Shown here: positions 502 through 10,561 of the stretch, piece after piece
How the letters are laid out: each line of letters begins with the position of its first letter
Numbering within the stretch: position 1 is the first letter of the stretch
Assembly: GCA_029856365.1 (NCBI GenBank)
Contig: JAHQWW010000129.1
Span: forward strand, 1-10,561
Source: Candidatus Hodarchaeota archaeon
GTDB lineage: Archaea; Asgardarchaeota; Heimdallarchaeia; Hodarchaeales; Hodarchaeaceae
Reading direction: 5' to 3'
DNA length: 10,561 nucleotides
Position numbers and translations under genes: made by a program
Notes under the pieces: model-generated
Told to the model about the DNA's origin: nothing
The model's database searches: none
Seen by the model: only the letters and a program-made list of their open reading frames with translations

Positions 502-3500
502 CTAAAGATCATGTAGTCTTCCGTTTTTTTTCAATACAATAATTGATATCATTGATAGTACAGCCATCAATCCAGTCATTCCAAGCACTGGTATCGATGG
601 TGCAACACTTGTGGTTGTAGAGGAGGAAGTTGTTGTCATTGTTGTTGTAGGCTCTTCATTCTGAATGGTAAATAGATTGGAGACAGCTTCGTTGGTTATC
701 CCTACTAAGCAGGAGGTAACCACTTTAATCCGATAAGTAGTATCATCATCAACAGTGGTGGTGTCCCAATCATAATTAGTGGTGGTCAGTCCTGATGTTA
801 GCTGGTTCCAGGTGTTTCCACCATCATATGAGTAATACACCGTATAAGTGAGGGGATGGCCTAAAGAATCCACTGAAGCTGCCCATTCAATCGTTATGGT
901 GCCTGAAAGGATTTCTCCACCTTTCAAGTTACTCACCTCTGGTGGTGTGAGTACATGGACGTTAATGCGTGACACCAATGGATAGGGATCTTGGTTTTCA
1001 CTACCAATGGAATAAGGATTATCAACGATACCGTCTCCGTCCGCATCAGGGCTAGTCCAGCCACTCCAATAGTTCAGGATGAAAACATTATTTGCCCCAT
1101 CATCATTTACTTGAGGGCCACTTACGAAGTGATTCATCGTAATGGTATTATAATCTGAATTTTTGAGATAAATTCCCTCATTGGGATTGTTTGTAATGGT
1201 GTTATTGCTAATGATGTTGTAATCAGAATCTTCTAGGTTGATTCCATTAATTTCATTATCGTGAACATCATTATCTGAAATGTCATTATAGTGAGCAGAA
1301 CTTAATTTTATTCCTGAATCCTTGTGATTATAAATAAAATTTGCTGTGATTTTATTATTATTTCCAAAGCATAGGATTCCATCATTATTATCGTATAGTA
1401 AATTACGATGGATTTTATTATTTTTTCCTCCTATCATAAACCCATTGATGTTGTTGAATACTGTATTATAAGTAGCAAGGTTATTTTCTTCACTATGATA
1501 AGGATTAATTTGGATCGCGAACTCTGAGTTGTATACAGTATTATGAGATATATTATTACTCCGACTTTCCCATAAAGAAATTCCCCGTCGGTCATTGTTT
1601 CCTGCTACTGTGTAATTAATTATATTGTAGCTAATAATGCAGTTATCGGACTCACTAATAACAATTCCTGCAAAATTATTATCACATGCGGTATTATTGG
1701 AGATTTCGTTCTCGTATGACCATAAAATAAAGATTCCCTCATATGTATTCTCGTAAGCACGATTGCTAGTAATTATATTTCGACTAATATAACTGGATAC
1801 CATCCCTTCGTTATTATATACCCAGATCCCATTTTCATTGTTCCCAAATACGGTATTATTATCAATCTTATTGTAAATGATGTCATCTTCAAGCCGAATA
1901 CCATTCAAATCGTTATTATAAGCTGTATTATGACAAATCATATTTTTAGAAGAAGAATAAAGACGGATACCATCTCCATTAGTATCATAAACGGTGTTCT
2001 TGGCAATTGTATTGTTTTGGGAAAAGGATGATAATTGAATGCCAACCCATTCATTACTGTACACTAAGTTATGAGATATGGTGGTATTGTGAGAAGCAGT
2101 GAGAGAAATTCCCTCATTGTTTTTGTATATAGTATTATGTTCTATGATATTAAGATTCGAAGAAGAAAGTGTTATTCCACCTGTGTTGTTATAGACTAGA
2201 TTCTTGAAAAGAAGATTTTGACTCGATTCCTCAAGATTTATTCCTCCCCAATTGTTATTAACAATTATATTACTAACAATGGAGTTATCATTCGAGGATC
2301 CTCCTTCACCAAGCCATATTCCGTACTCAGAGTTACCGAAAACGGCATTATTGACGACAGTATTATTGTTAGACGACCAGCCAAGTTTTATTCCAGTCCA
2401 ACTGTTCCAATAAACCGTATTGTTAATAATTGAATTATAATTAGATGATTCTAACCAAATACCGTTAAGACCATTGTGATAGATGATATTTTCTTCAATA
2501 GTTACATGCTTCACATTATGGAAATATATACCATAACCTGAACTGGATAACCCATTCAGGAAATTATTTCCAATTTGACAATATAATGTTGTACCGCTGA
2601 TTTCGATTAATGCCCCACTCGAAGTTGTGATATTATATCCTTCAATCCGAATAGGATCATCAATGGTTCCCAATCCAGGGAATGAAGAGTTGAGTTGAGT
2701 ATCAGAAGTAATCGTAATAGGACTATTAGGAGTGTACGTTTTGGTCACTATATTCATATCAGTCATCCATTGGGCCAAATTAGTCGAATTAGTGGGAACA
2801 CTGATTTCTCCGCTGATAATCCTATTTCTAACGGTTACATTCACTTCTTGGATTTTATCGAAACCGATTTTATCTTTCGTATAGATTAAAGGAGATAATC
2901 CAACCCCATTCTCTGCCATTCCTAATGTTTGAACATCAGCACTCCAATTCGAATTATAGACATCCTTAATAGCATTATAGACTGCAAGGTCAACTCTTTT
3001 CATCATAGAACAGAGGATTCGGCCAGGGTAAAGAGAATCTTGGTCTGCATCAACGCCAATGGCATAAAAACCTCCTCCCTGTTCATTTACCGACTCCAAG
3101 GCACCAATTCCACTAGCTCCTGCTGCAACAAAGATTATATCCACCCCCTCCGCCCACATGGCTTCCGCGATATTTTTACCTGTTACAGGATCACCCCATG
3201 CACCAACAAAGTCTTCAATGACCTCAATATAGCTATTATTCTTTTCGTAAAATACTCCAGCTGTATAACCAGCCCAGAATTCACGAATTAATGGAATATC
3301 CATGCCCCCGATAAATCCCACTTTTCCTGTTTGGGTCATCAAACCAGCTATGGCCCCTACAAGGAATGAACCTTCTTGTTCCTCGAATATAACAGACCTA
3401 ACATTACCTTGAATAACGACTTGATCAATTAACACAATTGATTGCGAAGGATAGTTTATGGCTGTTGTATTCACAGCTGATATTTGATCATATCCAATTG

Positions 3501-3945
3501 TTACAATTAAATCATAAGTACCAGAAGCCGCGTAAGTTTGTAACATGCCTGGGTATTGGCTGGAATCAGTAGGTTCTGCATAAACAAAGGTACATAATCC
3601 ATCTGTCTGTGCTTTTTGAAGCCCAGTATATACCATGCTATTGAAGCCTAGATCATTGATCCCTTGGGTAGATGCTGCAAAGACACATGCTACATTGATG
3701 GGAGCATTAATTTCAGTCACTTTATGATTTGGTGTCAGTTGACCTAATAATGGAACAGTAGATTTCTGGTTGGGGATTACCCCCGTTTGATCAAACTGTT
3801 TGGTCGAATACAGTTTCTCTATATTGGGTTTAAGTTCTTCTCCATTATTACCCCTAATATTAACCCCAATAATAAATATTAACATAAGAAGCATTGTTAA
3901 GATTAATTGTTTTGTTTTTCTCATGTGATTCTTCATTTTTGGCAC
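502..3945 (-). CDS. Secreted, C-terminally anchored surface protein: BMP/PnrA-family substrate-binding domain + NosD-like right-handed parallel beta-helix + Ig/Fn3-like domain + Thr/Ser linker + TM anchor
   Basis: Basic plus hydrophobic N-terminal signal (MRKTKQLILTMLLMLIFIIG). BMP motifs GINDLGFN, FEEQEGSFLVGAIAG, GFIGGMD, DIIFVAAGASG, AIGVDADQ, SMMKRVD (about aa 83-384, nt 3699-2794). Many N-x-x-x-GI-x-L-x-x-S-x-x-N-x-I-x-x-N repeats of about 22-24 aa end in NYWS..DADGDGIVDNPY..DPYPL (nt about 2736-973). These are followed by GGEILSGTITIEW..YSYDGGNTW..YDWDTT..YRIKV, then PTTTMTTTSSSTTTS, a hydrophobic helix and KK. The start may be GTG 3945, ATG 3936 or ATG 3924. Confidence 0.9.
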   Translation of the reverse strand: MPKMKNHMRKTKQLILTMLLMLIFIIGVNIRGNNGEELKPNIEKLYSTKQFDQTGVIPNQKSTVPLLGQLTPNHKVTEINAPINVACVFAASTQGINDLGFNSMVYTGLQKAQTDGLCTFVYAEPTDSSQYPGMLQTYAASGTYDLIVTIGYDQISAVNTTAINYPSQSIVLIDQVVIQGNVRSVIFEEQEGSFLVGAIAGLMTQTGKVGFIGGMDIPLIREFWAGYTAGVFYEKNNSYIEVIEDFVGAWGDPVTGKNIAEAMWAEGVDIIFVAAGASGIGALESVNEQGGGFYAIGVDADQDSLYPGRILCSMMKRVDLAVYNAIKDVYNSNWSADVQTLGMAENGVGLSPLIYTKDKIGFDKIQEVNVTVRNRIISGEISVPTNSTNLAQWMTDMNIVTKTYTPNSPITITSDTQLNSSFPGLGTIDDPIRIEGYNITTSSGALIEISGTTLYCQIGNNFLNGLSSSGYGIYFHNVKHVTIEENIIYHNGLNGIWLESSNYNSIINNTVYWNSWTGIKLGWSSNNNTVVNNAVFGNSEYGIWLGEGGSSNDNSIVSNIIVNNNWGGINLEESSQNLLFKNLVYNNTGGITLSSSNLNIIEHNTIYKNNEGISLTASHNTTISHNLVYSNEWVGIQLSSFSQNNTIAKNTVYDTNGDGIRLYSSSKNMICHNTAYNNDLNGIRLEDDIIYNKIDNNTVFGNNENGIWVYNNEGMVSSYISRNIITSNRAYENTYEGIFILWSYENEISNNTACDNNFAGIVISESDNCIISYNIINYTVAGNNDRRGISLWESRSNNISHNTVYNSEFAIQINPYHSEENNLATYNTVFNNINGFMIGGKNNKIHRNLLYDNNDGILCFGNNNKITANFIYNHKDSGIKLSSAHYNDISDNDVHDNEINGINLEDSDYNIISNNTITNNPNEGIYLKNSDYNTITMNHFVSGPQVNDDGANNVFILNYWSGWTSPDADGDGIVDNPYSIGSENQDPYPLVSRINVHVLTPPEVSNLKGGEILSGTITIEWAASVDSLGHPLTYTVYYSYDGGNTWNQLTSGLTTTNYDWDTTTVDDDTTYRIKVVTSCLVGITNEAVSNLFTIQNEEPTTTMTTTSSSTTTSVAPSIPVLGMTGLMAVLSMISIIVLKKNGRLHDL
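607..651 (-). repeat. Low-complexity Thr/Ser-rich linker (ACA-rich codons)
   Basis: Encodes PTTTMTTTSSSTTTS just before the C-terminal anchor, typical of the stalks of archaeal surface glycoproteins. Confidence 0.75.
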
Positions 3946-4557: not shown

Positions 4558-4956
4558 ATGTATCTCGAAACAAATCATAATGCAGAGACGATGGATCGCT
4601 TACATGAAATTGATAGAATACTTCAAGAACTCCAATCACGGATTCCAGACTTAGAAGGAGTCGCGGTTGTCTCCCGAGAGGGATTATCGATCGTTAGTGC
4701 TTTACTCACTACTATTGATGAAGATCGAATAGGTGCCATGACAGCTGCTAGTCTTTCTTTATCTGATCGAATTGTATTAGAATTAGAACGAGGCATTATG
4801 GATCAGGTAATTATTACAGGAACAGATGGTTTAGTAATTATTCGTGAAGCAGGAGAACATGCTGTGTTAGTAGGTATAGCTAAGACGAATGCCAAATTGG
4901 GGCTCGTTTTGCTCGATATAAAACGAGCTGCAAAAAGACTCGCTGGTCTGATTTGA
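4558..4956 (+). CDS. Roadblock/LC7 (MglB/LAMTOR-like) domain protein
   Basis: Typical roadblock pattern LxELxxxxPDLEGVAVVSREGLSI..DEDRIGAMTAASLSL..LELERG..QVIITGxDG..AKLGLVLLDIKRAA. Alternative start ATG 4591. Confidence 0.93.
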   Translation: MYLETNHNAETMDRLHEIDRILQELQSRIPDLEGVAVVSREGLSIVSALLTTIDEDRIGAMTAASLSLSDRIVLELERGIMDQVIITGTDGLVIIREAGEHAVLVGIAKTNAKLGLVLLDIKRAAKRLAGLI

Positions 4957-4971
4957 TTGGGTGTGATTTGA

Positions 4972-5598
4972 ATGAGCTTTTTTAATTCAATTCTCTCTAA
5001 TCAAAATAAACCGCTAAAACTAGTAATTCTTGGGGAAGGGGGTGTGGGCAAAACAACTTTCGCGAAGACTTTTGTTAATAACAGGTTTTTCTCTGAAGCG
5101 ACCCAAACAATTGCAATTGAATTTCATTCGAAGATTTTTTCAATAGGTATTGACACTAATGTAAAAATTCAAATTTGGGATCTAGGCGGACAAGAGCAAT
5201 TTAAAAACATGAGAGCTGTTTTCAGAAAATTCTGCGAAGGTACGGATGGAGCTCTTCTTTGTTTTGATTTAACTGATATTGGATCTCTGTTTGCCATTCC
5301 TGAATGGTTGGAATTCCTTGAAAACGATGCACAACGGTTTTTAATCGGGACGAAATATGATATCGCAACCATTGAAGAACGAAACATCAATCTTGAAACC
5401 TTTCAACAAAAATTCAATTGTGTATCTTCCTTTAAATGTACAGCAAAAGATGTTAACTCAATAGAAAACATATTTAGACAGATTATAATTTCAATCAAAG
5501 ATTTCAAAGAAAAGCAATTTGAGCAATTATCAGAAACAGTCATGAAACGTCCTAAATGGATGGATTTTATCCCCTCTTACCATAAAGAATTTGGATAA
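4972..5598 (+). CDS. Ras-superfamily small GTPase, Rab-like
   Basis: G1 GEGGVGKT, G2 Thr (QTIAIEF), G3 WDLGGQ, G4 TKYD, G5 CTAK. It lies 15 nt downstream of the roadblock gene, with GGGTGTGA as a Shine-Dalgarno-like element. Confidence 0.93.
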   Translation: MSFFNSILSNQNKPLKLVILGEGGVGKTTFAKTFVNNRFFSEATQTIAIEFHSKIFSIGIDTNVKIQIWDLGGQEQFKNMRAVFRKFCEGTDGALLCFDLTDIGSLFAIPEWLEFLENDAQRFLIGTKYDIATIEERNINLETFQQKFNCVSSFKCTAKDVNSIENIFRQIIISIKDFKEKQFEQLSETVMKRPKWMDFIPSYHKEFG

Positions 5599-5700: not shown

Positions 5701-6972
5701 ATGAAGGGCGATATTTTTAATTTAACGAGAATCACGTACATCATAGTCCTTGGTGCTAGCATTAATAACCTCGCCGCTGGATTACTTGAACCTACGGTTG
5801 CACCATATTTGGAAATCCTCGGTGCAAGCTCTCAAGAAATAGGAACGATTTTAAGTGCGCGATTCTTGGTCGTTGCGATTGCATCTCTCCCACTCGCCCT
5901 TTTTGCGTCTCGATTTGGCCTTAAACGCTTTTTGTATCTTTCAGCTATTGGTATGGTTATTGGGGGTGTAATTCTTTTTTCTATTGGAGGGAAAACTGCC
6001 ATTTTATGGTTCTATTTGTCTATTGGCTTTACAAGTGCCATCTTTAGCGGACCAGGAGCGGCATTGATCGCTGAAAATACTGGTACAAAACGAATCGCAG
6101 CATTTAGCCTGTTTTATGCGACTTGGATGATCCCAACTGCTCTTGGGGCACTAATTTCGACCATTTGGTTTTGGAACATTCTTGAATATACTCCTGAAAA
6201 TTTAGCAAGTATTTTTCCCCCAACAATTTTTGTAATGATAGCTGGAAGTGTGGTTTTCATTGTTTTAATACTTTTTACCGATCACGAAGAGAGTACGAAA
6301 GAATTACTGACTGTTACTGATATCAACCAAGTTCCTATTAAAAGCCAATTCCAAATATTATTTAGTCCAATTATTGCTTTACCTTTGACACTATTAATAA
6401 TTACAGAATTCTTATCAGGAGCAGGAGCAGGATCCAGTCTTCCGTATTTGACCCCTTATTTAAAAAGTATAGGCGCGACTCCAGGAGAACTTTCCATATT
6501 AGTTTTTATAATGAATATTTTTATGGGTGTTGCTACGCAGCTATCTCCCCTTTTAGCTAAGCGCTTTGGAGATTTGCGAGTTTTTTCCGTAACAATGATT
6601 TTATCTGTTTCTTGTTTGTTAGGAATTGCTTTTTCGAATGATTTGGTTGTATCAGCTTTATTTTTTATCTTCCGTGGTACTTTCGCCAATATGAACGCAC
6701 CAATAACCTCATCTCGGATGTTGGAATTCATTGAAACACGAGTTCGGGCAACAGGTGTTGCAACTACTTCTACAGTCCGTTGGATTGGTTGGAGTTTGTT
6801 TTCACCTATTTCAGGTGGAATTATTGATAATTACGGATACAACATTGCGTTTACTTTCACATCAATCATTTATATTGTCGCTTTGGTAATATTTGTCCGA
6901 GTAATCCAACGATTTAAGAGTTTAGAAGAGATTAAGTCTAAACCAACATTGAGAATACCTAACAATCATTAA
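5701..6972 (+). CDS. Major facilitator superfamily (MFS) transporter, substrate unknown
   Basis: 423 aa with about 12 hydrophobic segments in two 6-TM halves. Motif-A-like loops are ASRFGLKR and AKRFGDLR. RVRATG and GGIIDNYGY occur in the C-terminal half. Confidence 0.92.
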   Translation: MKGDIFNLTRITYIIVLGASINNLAAGLLEPTVAPYLEILGASSQEIGTILSARFLVVAIASLPLALFASRFGLKRFLYLSAIGMVIGGVILFSIGGKTAILWFYLSIGFTSAIFSGPGAALIAENTGTKRIAAFSLFYATWMIPTALGALISTIWFWNILEYTPENLASIFPPTIFVMIAGSVVFIVLILFTDHEESTKELLTVTDINQVPIKSQFQILFSPIIALPLTLLIITEFLSGAGAGSSLPYLTPYLKSIGATPGELSILVFIMNIFMGVATQLSPLLAKRFGDLRVFSVTMILSVSCLLGIAFSNDLVVSALFFIFRGTFANMNAPITSSRMLEFIETRVRATGVATTSTVRWIGWSLFSPISGGIIDNYGYNIAFTFTSIIYIVALVIFVRVIQRFKSLEEIKSKPTLRIPNNH

Positions 6973-7042: not shown

Positions 7043-7437
7043 GAGACTTTCGCTGATTAAATGATCAAATAACTTATCTAAAAATCCTCCCTTAACTGGT
7101 TTTGATAATCCATCTTTATAAATACTGATTCTGGAGATGATATTTCTTCATTCTCGTCTGGCGTTAATTGGCAAGGATAACAACCAATTGACTGGGAATA
7201 TTCTACAAAATCCTTAACTTCTCTTTCAGTTTTCATGATTAATTCTTGATTGTTCCATCCGTATTTAATCCCTCTCCATGTTCCATTAGGCTGCTCAATT
7301 ATCGGTATTATTCGTTTTCCTGTAATATCTCCTCCCATAATTAGAACACCTGATTTTAAATACTTTCCTGCGTTTAGAAACTTCTTCCATACACTCTCTG
7401 CCCCATGGATATCCGTACAGAAAAATATCCTTACCAT
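7043..7437 (-). pseudogene. Calcineurin-like metallophosphoesterase (Icc-related), frameshifted and 3'-truncated
   Basis: The N-terminus has motifs I and II (TDIHG, GGDITGK) with a GAGGT Shine-Dalgarno, but the frame stops at TAG 7080-7078 after 119 aa. The -1 frame continues YKDGLSKPVKGGFLDKLFDHLISESL (to 7043), and motif III (GNxD) and later motifs are absent. Confidence 0.75.
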
Positions 7438-7578: not shown

Positions 7579-7610
7579 TCATATGTCTATTCCATCCACT
7601 GGGATAATTG

Positions 7611-8996
7611 ATGCGAATGTCTGACTCATCATTAATAGATGTTATGAGAAAAGCTGAAACAGGCCCAATTTGTCTAGAAAAAGACTTTGATAGGAATATA
7701 CTAAGAATAAAACTCCAAGAGGTTATAAAAGAGTTTGATATCACATATAATCCAGATTTTTTAATTCCGAATGACAACAACTTAGCGGACGCACTGTTTA
7801 ATGCTGCATTTGATCTTTATCTAGAAATAGGCACTTTGTGTGTGAGTACGCATCGACAAATCAAGTTTGAAGAAACAGAAATCAAGGAGGCTCTACGAAA
7901 TGCAGCCAAACGTGTTATATTTGGTGAAGGGTCTGACACAAGAGAAATGGCGCCTCGAAAGGTAGAAGATCAAACCCCGCCTCTTTGTTTAACTTCAGGT
8001 GGATGTGAAATCTCTGAAGACATCTATGTTCAAGTAGTTCAGAGTTATGCACAAAATCCCCTGGCTGACACTATAAGCGGAGGATGTCCATTACACACCA
8101 TTTTTGGCATTATTCCCAAAGCAGGTACTCCTGCGGAGGTTTTAGCATCTATGTACAATGTCATCTATTCAAAAGAAGGAGCAAAGAGAGCAGGTCGCCC
8201 TTTGATAGGATTTCATAATCTTCTCGGAACCGCTCTTTCTGCTGCTGGCTATATCTCTGCAAGTCAACCCGAACTCGGTGTAAGACCTGTTGATGGAAAC
8301 CTCATTGCCTCTCTTGCAGAACTCAAGACGGATTACAGTCAGCTCACCAAAGCGTTATTTTACTCTGAGCGAAAAAATGTCTTGTCAGGAGCTGTGTATG
8401 TGCCACTAATGGGAGGATACGGTGGAGGCCCTGAAGGAACTGCAATAGTCACTCTAGCACACCATCTGCAAGGAGTTCTTGTCCACCAGGTTTCCTATGC
8501 AGACTTTCCAGTTACTCATCTCAGATATTCTTGTAGTACTGCACGGGAATCCCTGTGGGTTGCGAGTATCGTGGGCCAAGCCCTTAGTCGTAATACTCAT
8601 CTGTTAACAGCTTCTGAGGCTATCACTGCAGCTGGACCTTGCACAGAGATGTGTTTATATGAGGTTGCAGCAAGTTCAATCGTTGGTACCGCTTCTGGTA
8701 TCCACATTAATAATGCATCAGCGGCTAAAAGCCAGTATTTAGATCGGGAAACAGGAATGGAAGCAAAAATGGGGTGTGAAGTTGGGCATGCTGCTACTGG
8801 GATGAAAAGAACCAATGCTAATGAGTTAGTTAAACAACTTCTTCAGATGTATGATCAGAAGCTTGAAAAACCCCCACTAGGTCGGAAATTTCAAGAGTGT
8901 TATGATGTGACCACTGTAAAACCTTCTAAGGAGTATGTAGATGTTTACACACGTGTAAAAAATGAATTGGAAGAGCTGGGACTCAATTTAGAGTAA
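7611..8996 (+). CDS. mtmB: Monomethylamine:corrinoid methyltransferase (MtmB) family protein lacking pyrrolysine
   Basis: End-to-end similarity to Methanosarcina MtmB as recalled: THRxxKFxExEI, AGRP, ELKxD, PxxGGYxGGxExT, AGPCTEMCLxE, TGMEA, GxxFQECYDVxTVxP, LEELGL. The length (about 460 aa) is the same and there is no in-frame TAG. The start may be TTG 7608, ATG 7611 or ATG 7617. The symbol denotes the family, not a proven substrate. Confidence 0.92.
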   Translation: MRMSDSSLIDVMRKAETGPICLEKDFDRNILRIKLQEVIKEFDITYNPDFLIPNDNNLADALFNAAFDLYLEIGTLCVSTHRQIKFEETEIKEALRNAAKRVIFGEGSDTREMAPRKVEDQTPPLCLTSGGCEISEDIYVQVVQSYAQNPLADTISGGCPLHTIFGIIPKAGTPAEVLASMYNVIYSKEGAKRAGRPLIGFHNLLGTALSAAGYISASQPELGVRPVDGNLIASLAELKTDYSQLTKALFYSERKNVLSGAVYVPLMGGYGGGPEGTAIVTLAHHLQGVLVHQVSYADFPVTHLRYSCSTARESLWVASIVGQALSRNTHLLTASEAITAAGPCTEMCLYEVAASSIVGTASGIHINNASAAKSQYLDRETGMEAKMGCEVGHAATGMKRTNANELVKQLLQMYDQKLEKPPLGRKFQECYDVTTVKPSKEYVDVYTRVKNELEELGLNLE

Positions 8997-9145
8997 GATT
9001 AAGAATTAAATTCCAGAAAGAAGTACTATAAACTCTTCCTTGTCGAAGGATTCATCTAAATCTAAAGTTAGCAGGGGAGAAAAAACAGGGTCTATTCGAA
9101 AAAAATCTAGTATAGCTAATATATTTTCATGATGGGTTGTTATTT

Positions 9146-9187
9146 TCACACAATCCGAATCATTGAATCAATAGTGATTACCTTCAA
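9146..9187 (-). pseudogene. Remnant N-terminus of a PIN-domain (VapC-like) toxin
   Basis: 5 nt after the AbrB-like stop, TTG opens MKVITIDSMIRIV*. This resembles the first beta-strand and catalytic Asp (hhhD-S/T-x-hh) of VapC. GAGGG precedes it. Confidence 0.5.
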
Positions 9188-9192
9188 ATCCC

Positions 9193-9426
9193 TCAGAATA
9201 ACTTCTCGAATTTGATTGGTGAATTTGTTTCTTGTTTCAGGAATTCACTGATATTATCGGAAAGCTTTTCAAACTCTTTAGCTGAAAGGACTTTTTTTAT
9301 AATCAAAAAATCTTTAATTATCGATAAGTTTAGTTCTACTCCAGTTGTTGACCCTAACTTTTTTCTTAATTCTCGCAGGATAGTAATTCTCCCTTTCTCA
9401 TCGATTGAAACTTTCATCAATACCAC
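9193..9426 (-). CDS. AbrB/MazE/SpoVT-family DNA-binding protein (VapB-like antitoxin), possibly degenerating
   Basis: VSIDEKGRITILRELRKKLG..G..L....IIKK matches the swapped-hairpin consensus (VDxKGRIxIPKExRxxLG) and is followed by a short charged tail. The start is GTG 9426 or ATG 9417. Confidence 0.85.
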   Translation of the reverse strand: MVLMKVSIDEKGRITILRELRKKLGSTTGVELNLSIIKDFLIIKKVLSAKEFEKLSDNISEFLKQETNSPIKFEKLF

Positions 9427-9475: not shown

Positions 9476-10009
9476 CTACAGAAACTCTGTTAAAATCTTC
9501 TTTTGTGATTCTAAAGCTAAAAGTTTCTCTTTTCTCCACAGTCCTCCACCATATCCATGTAATTTTCCATTACTAGCAATCACACGATGACAGGGGACGA
9601 CTATAGCGACTGGATTATTTCCATTTGCTCTTCCTACTGCTCGGGAGGCGGATGGATTACCTAGTAATTTTGCAATCTCACCATAGGATCTGGTTTCTCC
9701 GTAAGGAATCTTTTGTAATTCGTTCCAAACAGAGGTTTCGAAGGGAGTACCTCGTAAATCTAGTGGAATGGAAAAATCACGTAATTTTCCATTAAAATAT
9801 TCTTTCAGCTCAATCTCAAGCTTATAAAGAGTTGGATGTGATCCTTCAATGCAATCAAGTTGGTACCTTTTTTTGTATCGTGTTTTAATATTGGATAAGT
9901 CGTGCCTATCGTTGAATTCAAGAAGACAACAGCCCTTAGAGGTTGTACCAAGGATTAAAGAACCTAAGGGGCTACCTAAATATTGATAAACTAATTTATA
10001 TTCAGACAT
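9476..10009 (-). CDS. ogt: Methylated-DNA-[protein]-cysteine S-methyltransferase (O6-alkylguanine alkyltransferase, AdaB/Ogt)
   Basis: Motifs SPLG, GTPFExxVW, IPYGETRSYGEIA, ASRAVGRANGxNP, active-site PCHRV (Cys codon 9592-9590) and GYGGGLWRKEKLL. The likely true start is ATG 10009 (MSEYK, 177 aa), overlapping the upstream gene by 8 nt. The track's start at 10084 is over-extended. Confidence 0.96.
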   Translation of the reverse strand: MSEYKLVYQYLGSPLGSLILGTTSKGCCLLEFNDRHDLSNIKTRYKKRYQLDCIEGSHPTLYKLEIELKEYFNGKLRDFSIPLDLRGTPFETSVWNELQKIPYGETRSYGEIAKLLGNPSASRAVGRANGNNPVAIVVPCHRVIASNGKLHGYGGGLWRKEKLLALESQKKILTEFL

Positions 10010-10544
10010 TGCGACTTTCTCCTGGAGAATGTCCAAATTCCTTAAAAAAAGCTGCTCTAAATCCACTATTCGATCTATAACCACAATGAGATGGGATCTC
10101 GTTGTGATTGGCTCCTTTTTTTATCAATTTCTTTGCGTAAGCAAGACGCAGTTTTCGATGATACGCCAGTGGGGTCACATGATAATGAATTCTAAAGTTC
10201 CTTCTTATAGTCGATATATCTACTCCTGCTATACAACTAAGGAATCCTTCGTTAATTCGCTCAGAAACATTTCTTTTCATGTAACGAAGTACCTTATCTA
10301 ACCATTGTGGGACAACATTGGGAAAAATATCTGGTTTACATCTTTTACAGCTTCGATATTTAGCAGCCTTCGCCTCTTCTCGAGTTGAAAAGAATACTAT
10401 ATTTTTCTCGATAGCTAACTTTGCTTTACATGAAGGAAGACAATATATCTTCATCGTCCGCACCCCAACATAAAAATAACCATCGTATGAAGCATCACGG
10501 CTTACTCGTGCCCTCAACATTTCTTCATACGAAAGTTTCTCCAT
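10002..10544 (-). CDS. adaA: AdaA-like protein: Ada Zn-binding methylphosphotriester-repair domain + AraC-type HTH
   Basis: RDASYDGYFYVGVRT..IYCLPSC..N..FF....A....YRSCKRCKP supplies four Zn ligands (C35, C39, C66, C69). The AraC-type C-terminus has RRNF..TPLAY..RL..AKKL..CGY.S.SGF..AF.KEFG.SP. A GAGG Shine-Dalgarno lies upstream. Confidence 0.93.
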   Translation of the reverse strand: MEKLSYEEMLRARVSRDASYDGYFYVGVRTMKIYCLPSCKAKLAIEKNIVFFSTREEAKAAKYRSCKRCKPDIFPNVVPQWLDKVLRYMKRNVSERINEGFLSCIAGVDISTIRRNFRIHYHVTPLAYHRKLRLAYAKKLIKKGANHNEIPSHCGYRSNSGFRAAFFKEFGHSPGESRNV

Positions 10545-10561
10545 TAAAAAGCCTCTGATTT

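Follow-up and report, generated by a model that had tools for sequence, protein, structure and literature searches.

A pyrrolysine-free MtmB homolog with a His-Asn pair at the probable pyrrolysine site in a Hodarchaeota archaeon: a predicted corrinoid methyltransferase

Results

An intact, stop-free MtmB homolog lies on an Asgard contig

We analyzed a 10,561-nucleotide contig (JAHQWW010000129.1) from assembly GCA_029856365.1 of a Candidatus Hodarchaeota archaeon. This whole contig (G000:C161), hereafter the window, carries a homolog of MtmB, the family founded by the monomethylamine methyltransferase that contains pyrrolysine (Pyl). In order, the window holds the 3' part of a D-aminoacyl-tRNA deacylase gene, a gene for a Bmp/NosD protein, a Roadblock gene with a small GTPase gene, a major facilitator superfamily (MFS) gene, a short reverse open reading frame (ORF) and the MtmB homolog. 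Past the MtmB homolog, on the opposite strand, lie ogt and then an Ada-type Zn-finger/AraC gene that runs off the contig end. The features on which the analysis turns are as follows.

7611..8996, plus strand: pyrrolysine-free MtmB-family gene of the His-Asn type, predicted substrate:corrinoid methyltransferase (MT1) (Pfam, PDB, structure model, dN/dS)
8214..8219, plus strand: codons CAT AAT, His202-Asn203, favored equivalent of Pyl202 of MtmB (HMMER, hhalign, MAFFT, and DSSP on the model)
5701..6972, plus strand: MFS transporter of 423 amino acids (Pfam MFS_1, E 1e-30), upstream of and co-directional with the MtmB homolog

The ATG at 7611 opens a frame of 461 amino acids with no internal stop and hence no TAG; the mechanical ORF call (7608..8996, plus strand) begins at a TTG one codon earlier and gives 462 amino acids. 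A sequence-only reading of this DNA, made without database searches, had described an uninterrupted frame of about 460 amino acids encoding a pyrrolysine-free MtmB-family protein, and both descriptions held. The Pfam MtmB profile (PF05369) matched with an E value of 1.3e-114 (384 bits; cut-off 25), aligning residues 8-458 to profile positions 3-450 of 450, that is, over its full length. The PDB sequences of MtmB (1l2q/1tv2) matched at an E value of about 4e-80, and no NCBIfam model matched at E 0.01 or better. The AlphaFold2 model of the protein reached a predicted local distance difference test (pLDDT) score of 96.7, and the top Foldseek matches of this predicted structure were 1nth, 1l2q and 1tv2, at a template-modeling (TM) score of 0.95 and a root-mean-square deviation of 1.3 Å.

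These matches are structures of MtmB1, the pyrrolysine-containing monomethylamine:corrinoid methyltransferase of Methanosarcina barkeri (1L2Q, 1NTH, 1TV2). The two proteins share the Pfam family over their full length, a similar size (461 versus 458 amino acids) and the TIM-barrel fold. Both also have the AGPCTEM motif and the GRP anchor that precedes the strand of the active site. They differ in that the window protein is only 34% identical (to 1nth), is encoded without UAG, has His202 (or Asn203) for Pyl202 followed by a one-residue insertion, and has a rebuilt pocket. It also falls in the other half of the family tree, and no PylS or MCR was found in its host. The gene is an intact, pyrrolysine-independent member of the MtmB superfamily.

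A His-Asn pair takes the place of pyrrolysine in a rebuilt pocket

The DNA at 8208-8219 reads GGA TTT CAT AAT and encodes Gly200-Phe201-His202-Asn203, with the His codon CAT at 8214-8216, as the sequence-only reading had given it. In a pairwise HMMER alignment, X202 (Pyl) of 1l2q stood opposite His202, and the one-residue insertion fell in the loop after it. A profile-profile alignment by hhalign, of 18 His-type proteins versus seven Pyl-type MtmBs read through their TAG, again set His202 opposite Pyl. In a MAFFT alignment of 273 sequences the gap opened inside the strand, which brought Asn203 opposite Pyl instead. DSSP on the AlphaFold2 model assigned residues 200-203 to a single barrel strand with a loop after it, and His202-Asn203 to the C-terminal end of that strand; an insertion in the loop is therefore more plausible than one within the strand. 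We therefore favor His202 as the equivalent of Pyl202, an assignment supported by two of three alignment methods and ambiguous by one residue. The earlier claims of a His at the Pyl site and of a nearby one-residue insertion thus stood with HMMER and hhalign, and only the exact pairing shifted with MAFFT.

The pair is strongly conserved. Close Asgard orthologs kept both His and Asn in 52 of 52 cases, more distant members of the His-Asn clade had His in 28/30 and Asn in 29/30, and the pair persisted down to 43% identity; a His kept so widely is not a chance substitution. Among 115 near-full-length homologs, the Pyl column held His in 78, always followed by Asn, and the other groups had Met-Asn or Leu-Gln/Lys. 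His at this site is thus not unique to the window gene but marks a large clade.

We then compared the residues that are invariant in the seven Pyl-type MtmBs aligned with their counterparts in the window protein. The substitutions, given as Pyl-type residue and window residue, were:

E205 in Pyl-type MtmB, G206 in the window protein
H228 in Pyl-type MtmB, N230 in the window protein
E229 in Pyl-type MtmB, L231 in the window protein
E259 in Pyl-type MtmB, V262 in the window protein
Q260 in Pyl-type MtmB, Y263 in the window protein
D296 in Pyl-type MtmB, F299 in the window protein
W303 in Pyl-type MtmB, Y306 in the window protein
Q333 in Pyl-type MtmB, E336 in the window protein
Y334 in Pyl-type MtmB, A337 in the window protein
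Y335 in Pyl-type MtmB, I338 in the window protein

With these replacements the pocket is no longer acidic in character and is richer in hydrophobic and aromatic side chains. S156, N183, H202, N203, Y263 and C308 are among the residues that are conserved across the His-Asn clade and different in Pyl-type MtmB. We also considered a candidate zinc site made of the clade-specific residues C126, H284, H285, C308 and H393; by the secondary structure of the model, H284, H285 and H393 fall within helices and not where strands end.

The His-Asn proteins form a clade apart from MtmB and MtqB

The family is large: 1041 representatives of 50%-identity clusters matched at E < 0.001. Close orthologs (70-94% identity) were named Hodarchaeales, Hodarchaeota, Heimdallarchaeota, Promethearchaeota, Thorarchaeota or Borrarchaeum, and public records name them, automatically, monomethylamine:corrinoid methyltransferase. 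In a sample of 300 genomes from the phylum, 46 had a family match, none of them with an internal TAG, and orthologs at 70% identity or more occurred in 11 of the 20 same-genus genomes and in one other genome. The ratio of nonsynonymous to synonymous substitution (dN/dS) was 0.09 at a dS of 0.59 against a 90%-identical ortholog and ranged from 0.06 to 0.10 at dS 0.6-1.7; the His-type gene is under strong purifying selection.

Trees were built with FastTree from 273 sequences and with IQ-TREE in quick mode from 88. Both placed MtqB, a characterized pyrrolysine-free homolog, and the Pyl-type MtmBs in one part (SH-aLRT 90) and the window protein in a separate superclade whose members all have Asn after a variable residue (SH-aLRT 100). 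Within this superclade the His-Asn proteins formed a group (99) that is large and spans archaea and bacteria, with a Leu-Gln/Lys clade nested inside it as the sister (83) of the Asgard His-type clade. The sequence-only reading had proposed a tree to see whether His-type proteins form a clade; they do so together with the nested clade, which has lost the His. From this placement, the window protein is neither an MtmB in the strict sense nor an MtqB.

The Pyl-type mtmB genes in this comparison were collected with a DNA pattern spanning the TAG. Some fragments within the 150 top library representatives, such as P0182, whose sequence begins just past column 202, looked Pyl-type but proved to be mis-started Met-Asn-type proteins and were set aside. 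In a family search of 81 Methanosarcinaceae-level genomes, every Pyl-type match had exactly one TAG. The methylotrophic methanogens among them (loci L074-L093) also carry at least four stop-free MtmB groups besides the Pyl-type; one of these directly adjoins Pyl-type mtmB, and a function is known for the MtqB group alone.

The automatic name of the orthologs raises the alternative that the window protein is a genuine monomethylamine methyltransferase, with His202 activating the substrate in place of pyrrolysine. The close fold match to MtmB is in keeping with this, as is the small monomethylamine activity reported for MtqB (PMC13044021). However, E205, E229, E259, Q260, Q333, Y334 and Y335 of the Pyl-type enzymes have all been replaced, the clade lies in the other half of the tree from Pyl-type MtmB, and the nested sister clade dispenses with His in favor of Leu-Gln or Leu-Lys. 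The name itself is a family name assigned automatically. We consider this alternative very improbable.

MtqB is a characterized non-Pyl precedent distinct from the window protein

MtqB of Methanococcoides methylutens Q3c is a non-Pyl MtmB homolog that demethylates tetramethylammonium and choline (PMC13044021, 2026). It was described as the first function for any non-Pyl MtmB, in the same study that found non-Pyl MtmBs spread over Asgard archaea (PMC13044021). The statement in the sequence-only reading that such proteins have no established substrate is therefore outdated.

One stop-free group in the Methanosarcinaceae-level genomes has a corrinoid gene directly upstream, and exact look-up assigned its members to Methanococcoides orientis, M. 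methylutens, strain AM1 and others. At 78.0% identity to the AM1 protein, P0271 of M. methylutens agrees with the figure given for MtqB (PMC13044021), and because of this agreement we identify P0271 as MtqB or a near-identical ortholog. P0271 and the window protein were 33.8% identical. The two are alike in being pyrrolysine-free members of the MtmB superfamily with a remodeled, non-acidic pocket and an expected separate corrinoid protein. They differ in their place in the tree, where MtqB groups with the Pyl-type MtmBs outside the His-Asn clade, and in the pocket, where MtqB has Gly/Ile at the His-Asn position. Four proteins of the MtqB clade have C-M-C at MtmB columns 259-261, which we take to be the 'position 4 Met, position 5 Cys' of PMC13044021, whereas the window protein has V-Y-V. 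The loci differ as well: mtqC lies directly upstream of mtqB in all five Methanococcoides loci, whereas the window gene has no adjacent corrinoid gene.

A second precedent is the set of non-Pyl quaternary-amine methyltransferases of the MttB family (MtgB, MtcB, MtpB), to which the sequence-only reading had drawn an analogy. The analogy holds, in that these too lack pyrrolysine, are related to a Pyl enzyme and act on other methyl donors with a corrinoid protein, and the genome encodes four MttB homologs without stops. They nevertheless belong to another Pfam family (PF06253) and match the window protein only distantly in structure, with a Foldseek TM score of about 0.5 and 10-12% identity.

A Lys/Gln-type sister paralog accompanies the His-type gene

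In loci L017, L018 and L108, from relatives that are closed or have long contigs, the gene order of the window continues with a second MtmB homolog and a nitroreductase-family gene. The contig C84 (locus L015, G000:C84:1-1408) begins inside just such a homolog, with Lys at the Pyl column in the motif GRPGIFL-K-SVGT, and then carries a nitroreductase-family gene. Since C84 starts inside the paralog that this synteny predicts beyond the Ada gene (window 10002-10559), C161 and C84 are almost certainly neighbors, predicted to join across the 3' part of the paralog. The genome's own Lys/Gln-type paralog is represented by a truncated copy of the P0115 type at G000:C84:1-705. In 10 of the 12 same-genus genomes that have the His type, the two genes lie at most 3.5 kb apart.

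The Lys/Gln-type proteins form the sister clade of the Asgard His-type proteins (42-46% identity) and are likewise uncharacterized, but they have Leu-Lys or Leu-Gln for His-Asn and lack the one-residue insertion. Several genomes have the Lys/Gln-type paralog in one transcription unit with a nitroreductase-family gene and a corrinoid-protein gene of its own. The nitroreductase-family (flavin) gene lies directly upstream of the Lys/Gln-type gene, with or without a corrinoid gene between, at gaps of 4-22 bp (L112:3956-6686; L015:1-1408).

The genome encodes a corrinoid protein, an activase and a homocysteine methyltransferase

The assembly comprises 4.24 Mb in 204 contigs at 35% G+C and is 83.6% complete, so that genome-wide negatives below mean not found and do not prove absence. 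It has three MtmB-family matches, two of them cut by contig ends. One MtmC/MtgC-type corrinoid protein is encoded on C73 (TIGR02370, 218.6 bits, over the cut-off). Its gene is tightly clustered with those of a homocysteine S-methyltransferase and a non-Pyl MttB homolog (L013:4421-7440, minus strand). The cluster has the appearance of a folate-independent methionine synthase that is split into separate proteins and receives its methyl group from a methylated amine. A RACo/AcsV-like activase is encoded on C160. The corrinoid protein and reductive activator that the earlier reading proposed to look for are thus both present. The only clear second methyltransferase found is the homocysteine S-methyltransferase beside the C73 corrinoid protein, and one URO-D protein is weakly MtaA-like. 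The sole pterin-binding protein was considered as a methyl-tetrahydrofolate methyltransferase and rejected, as it is dihydropteroate synthase (TIGR01496, over the cut-off).

MCR alpha and CdhC (acetyl-CoA synthase) were not found, and the best PylS match scored 25.7 bits against a cut-off of 178. Aragorn found 14 tRNAs, none with a CUA anticodon; this set is plainly incomplete and gives no evidence about tRNA-Pyl. TAG ends 307 of 1591 long ORFs (19%), and a TAG share of about 17-18% of stops has been reported for organisms that do not decode Pyl, as against under 5% for Pyl users (PMC12180501); the genome resembles the former. A probably non-methanogenic Asgard host had been proposed from the sequence, in agreement with the Hodarchaeales, Heimdallarchaeota and Promethearchaeota names of the best matches, the Roadblock and GTPase pair close by and the failure to find MCR. 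The methylotrophic input that was also proposed is not indicated as an energy-yielding one: CdhC was not found, no pterin-binding protein other than dihydropteroate synthase turned up, and homocysteine S-methyltransferase is the only clear second methyltransferase.

Corrinoid genes recur beside His-Asn genes in other genomes. A corrinoid gene lies directly downstream of the His-type gene in L019 (71% identity) and head to head with it in the same-genus loci L110 and L111. In L112, also of the same genus, it lies 2.7 kb away in an operon of nitroreductase, corrinoid and Lys/Gln-type MtmB genes, and the more distant clade members at L094 and L099 sit directly beside a corrinoid protein. No corrinoid gene adjoins the His-type gene in the window or its three nearest relatives. 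We also predicted the complex of the window protein with the C73 corrinoid protein, which scored 0.46 against 0.00 for the best control; runs agreed in at least 85% of contacts, with a partner pLDDT of at least 79. The mark used is reached by 58/80 solved complexes and 2/110 mismatched pairs, of which seven and both, respectively, score 0.60 or under, and the result accordingly lends weak support to the pairing. The pass may reflect likeness to a known structure, because the related complex MttB-MttC (7xcn) has been solved.

These findings bear on the alternative that the protein has kept the MtmB fold and taken on a binding, regulatory or other chemical role outside corrinoid methyl transfer. 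The window offers no partner gene, NCBIfam offers no match, and the catalytic residue of the founding enzyme is gone, all of which would fit such a loss. However, in several lineages members of the clade repeatedly have a corrinoid-protein gene as neighbor, purifying selection on the gene is strong, and the one characterized non-Pyl member, MtqB, is a corrinoid methyltransferase. We regard a role outside methyl transfer as the most improbable of the alternatives considered.

A predicted methyltransferase for an imported methylated compound

Taken together, we think it likely that the window protein is an MT1 for an imported methylated compound, distinct from a monomethylamine methyltransferase working by the Pyl mechanism, with the methyl group going most plausibly to homocysteine. 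A small methylated compound would be bound, probably after import by the MFS transporter encoded upstream. The substrate would sit in the pocket at the C-terminal face of the barrel, where His202-Asn203 and hydrophobic and aromatic residues would stand in for the acidic residues that hold Pyl. Its methyl group would be presented to the Co(I) of a separate MtmC/MtgC-type corrinoid protein, whose cobalt would be kept reduced by a RACo/AcsV-type activase, and would then be passed on, most plausibly to homocysteine. The enzyme would work alongside its Lys/Gln-type sister paralog. Our best guess for the donor is a quaternary or otherwise N-methylated amine or amino-acid derivative. The analysis shows the family, the fold, the conservation and selection, and the repeated genetic linkage of the clade to corrinoid proteins; which corrinoid protein serves the enzyme here, where the methyl group goes, what His202 does and what kind of donor is used are inferred. 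Because homocysteine is the only clear methyl acceptor found, and neither methanogenesis genes nor acetyl-CoA synthase were found, methyl scavenging for methionine, not methanogenesis or acetogenesis, is the function suggested.

The MFS transporter is the candidate importer of the methyl donor: in L018, L108 and L112, as in the window, the His-type gene is directly preceded on its own strand by an MFS gene, 80-90% identical to that of the window.

Several observations weigh against this proposal. The window itself has no corrinoid protein, activase or second methyltransferase, and the only assembled corrinoid protein of the genome adjoins an MttB homolog on another contig. Sister genomes have a second, dedicated corrinoid protein beside their MtmB paralogs; none was found in this genome, perhaps owing to the contig breaks at C84 and C35, and synteny predicts a second corrinoid gene past the C35 end. 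The homocysteine route rests on one cluster elsewhere in the genome. The MFS linkage occurs in only about half of the loci examined, and the transporter falls in no substrate-specific family (NCBIfam scores far below the cut-offs; nearest PDB entry NorA at E 0.005; Atlas neighbors generic MFS). Furthermore, 5 of the 20 same-genus genomes have no match, and in one more, G360 (C65:17652-18775), the match to the His-type gene is split into separate stretches of residues 4-270 and 385-460, which may mean a pseudogene; the gene is therefore accessory within the genus.

A bolder and less likely alternative is that the His-Asn clade constitutes a distinct MtmB-fold catalytic class, a cheap substitute for pyrrolysine in which His202 activates a non-quaternary N-methyl compound. 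Together with the paralog it would demethylate one imported substrate stepwise, passing the methyl groups to a shared corrinoid protein and from there to homocysteine. Candidate donors would be methylated histidine, an opine-like secondary amine or even simple methylamine, with His202 acting as an acid or a positioning group. If the clade is such a class, the archaea closest to eukaryotes would have a folate-independent, B12-dependent route from environmental methylated nitrogen compounds to methionine.

The neighborhoods of distant His-Asn members raise a narrower form of the proposed methyltransferase, a demethylase of methylated histidine or another N-methyl amino acid, such as an opine-like secondary amine, whose product would enter amino-acid breakdown. 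These neighborhoods include corrinoid proteins, MttB homologs, amino-acid ATP-binding cassette (ABC) importers, aminotransferases, a histidine-ammonia-lyase-type enzyme and urocanase. At L096 and L099 (63% and 49% identity) the last two share a cluster with extra MtmB paralogs, a corrinoid protein, an aminotransferase and an ABC importer of the branched-chain-amino-acid type. In one same-genus genome the gene after the His-type gene belongs to the octopine/nopaline-dehydrogenase family (L111:3011-4156), and the Hodarchaeota genome has adjacent urocanase and histidine-ammonia-lyase genes (hutU/hutH) on its own contig C9. Yet none of nine Asgard ortholog loci examined has a histidine-degradation gene near the His-type gene, the genome's own hut genes are on another contig, and the linkage is limited to relatives of less than 65% identity, whose substrate may differ. 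We hold this specialization to be doubtful. A DUF3830/cucumopine-like gene lies near the distant His-Asn gene at L094; with L111, it is a weak hint of opine-like secondary amines.

The genes downstream suggest a different donor. In the window, L017, L018 and L108, ogt and an Ada-type Zn-finger/AraC regulator stand between the His-type gene and its paralog, which would fit an enzyme that took methyl groups from methyl halides or another alkylating agent, with ada/ogt handling the alkylation damage that such compounds cause. A pocket without acidic residues and richer in hydrophobic and aromatic ones would suit such a donor. In 'Ca. Formimonas warabiya' grown on dichloromethane, the protein with the strongest induction was a non-Pyl member of the MtmB superfamily (PMC9768040), and corrinoid-dependent chloromethane systems have Asgard homologs, though of the UroD superfamily (PMC13222342). 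However, ada and ogt are missing at the same position in L112, L113, L098 and L019, which confines the linkage to one sub-lineage. Moreover, a diffusible gas would not call for a dedicated MFS importer, and the Formimonas protein, which was not placed in the His-Asn clade, shares only about 30% identity with other members of the family. We judge a halomethane donor very improbable. The chloromethane methyltransferase CdmB, which has Asgard homologs, was considered as an explanation and rejected as a UroD-superfamily protein, not an MtmB.

For the favored reading, an MT1 for an imported methylated compound, the gene, its paralog and a candidate corrinoid partner are well defined. Of the roughly one thousand pyrrolysine-free MtmB homologs known, a single one, MtqB in 2026, has a demonstrated substrate. 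The His-Asn clade is large, strongly selected and far from both characterized members, and for these reasons we take it to mark an undescribed methyl donor or activation mode. Methyl scavenging in an Asgard lineage would bear on the use of methylated nitrogen in sediments by relatives of the eukaryotic ancestor. Publications already cover the existence of non-Pyl MtmB homologs, their occurrence in Asgard archaea and the likelihood that they use other donors, and the orthologs are annotated in public records; as a discovery, the present one is incremental.

Other genes of the window

Upstream of the MFS gene, at 4558-5598, a Roadblock/LC7 gene is followed 15 bp on by a Ras/Arf-like small GTPase gene, and the position of the pair is kept in L017, L018 and L108. 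Such eukaryote-like pairs are typical of Asgard archaea. The Bmp/NosD gene at 502-3945 (minus strand) encodes a protein of 1147 amino acids with a Bmp/PnrA-like substrate-binding domain and many NosD/right-handed beta-helix repeats; versions of 1118 and 1338 amino acids occupy the equivalent place in L017 and L108.

The short reverse ORF between the MFS and MtmB genes (7078-7437, minus strand) encodes 119 amino acids and matches only the first 105 residues, at 62% identity, of a longer ORF on C21. Its D-x-H-G and G-G-D motifs resemble those of metallophosphoesterases; Pfam found no family. L018 and L108 have no ORF at this place, and the ORF is probably a gene fragment. Downstream of the MtmB homolog, at 9196-9417 (minus strand), we observed an intact MazE/AbrB-like antitoxin ORF that is 92% identical to its counterpart in L108. 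Beside it, 9009-9167 (minus strand) holds the last 53 codons of a PIN-domain toxin gene, about two thirds of which has been lost here and which is whole in a 90%-related genome.

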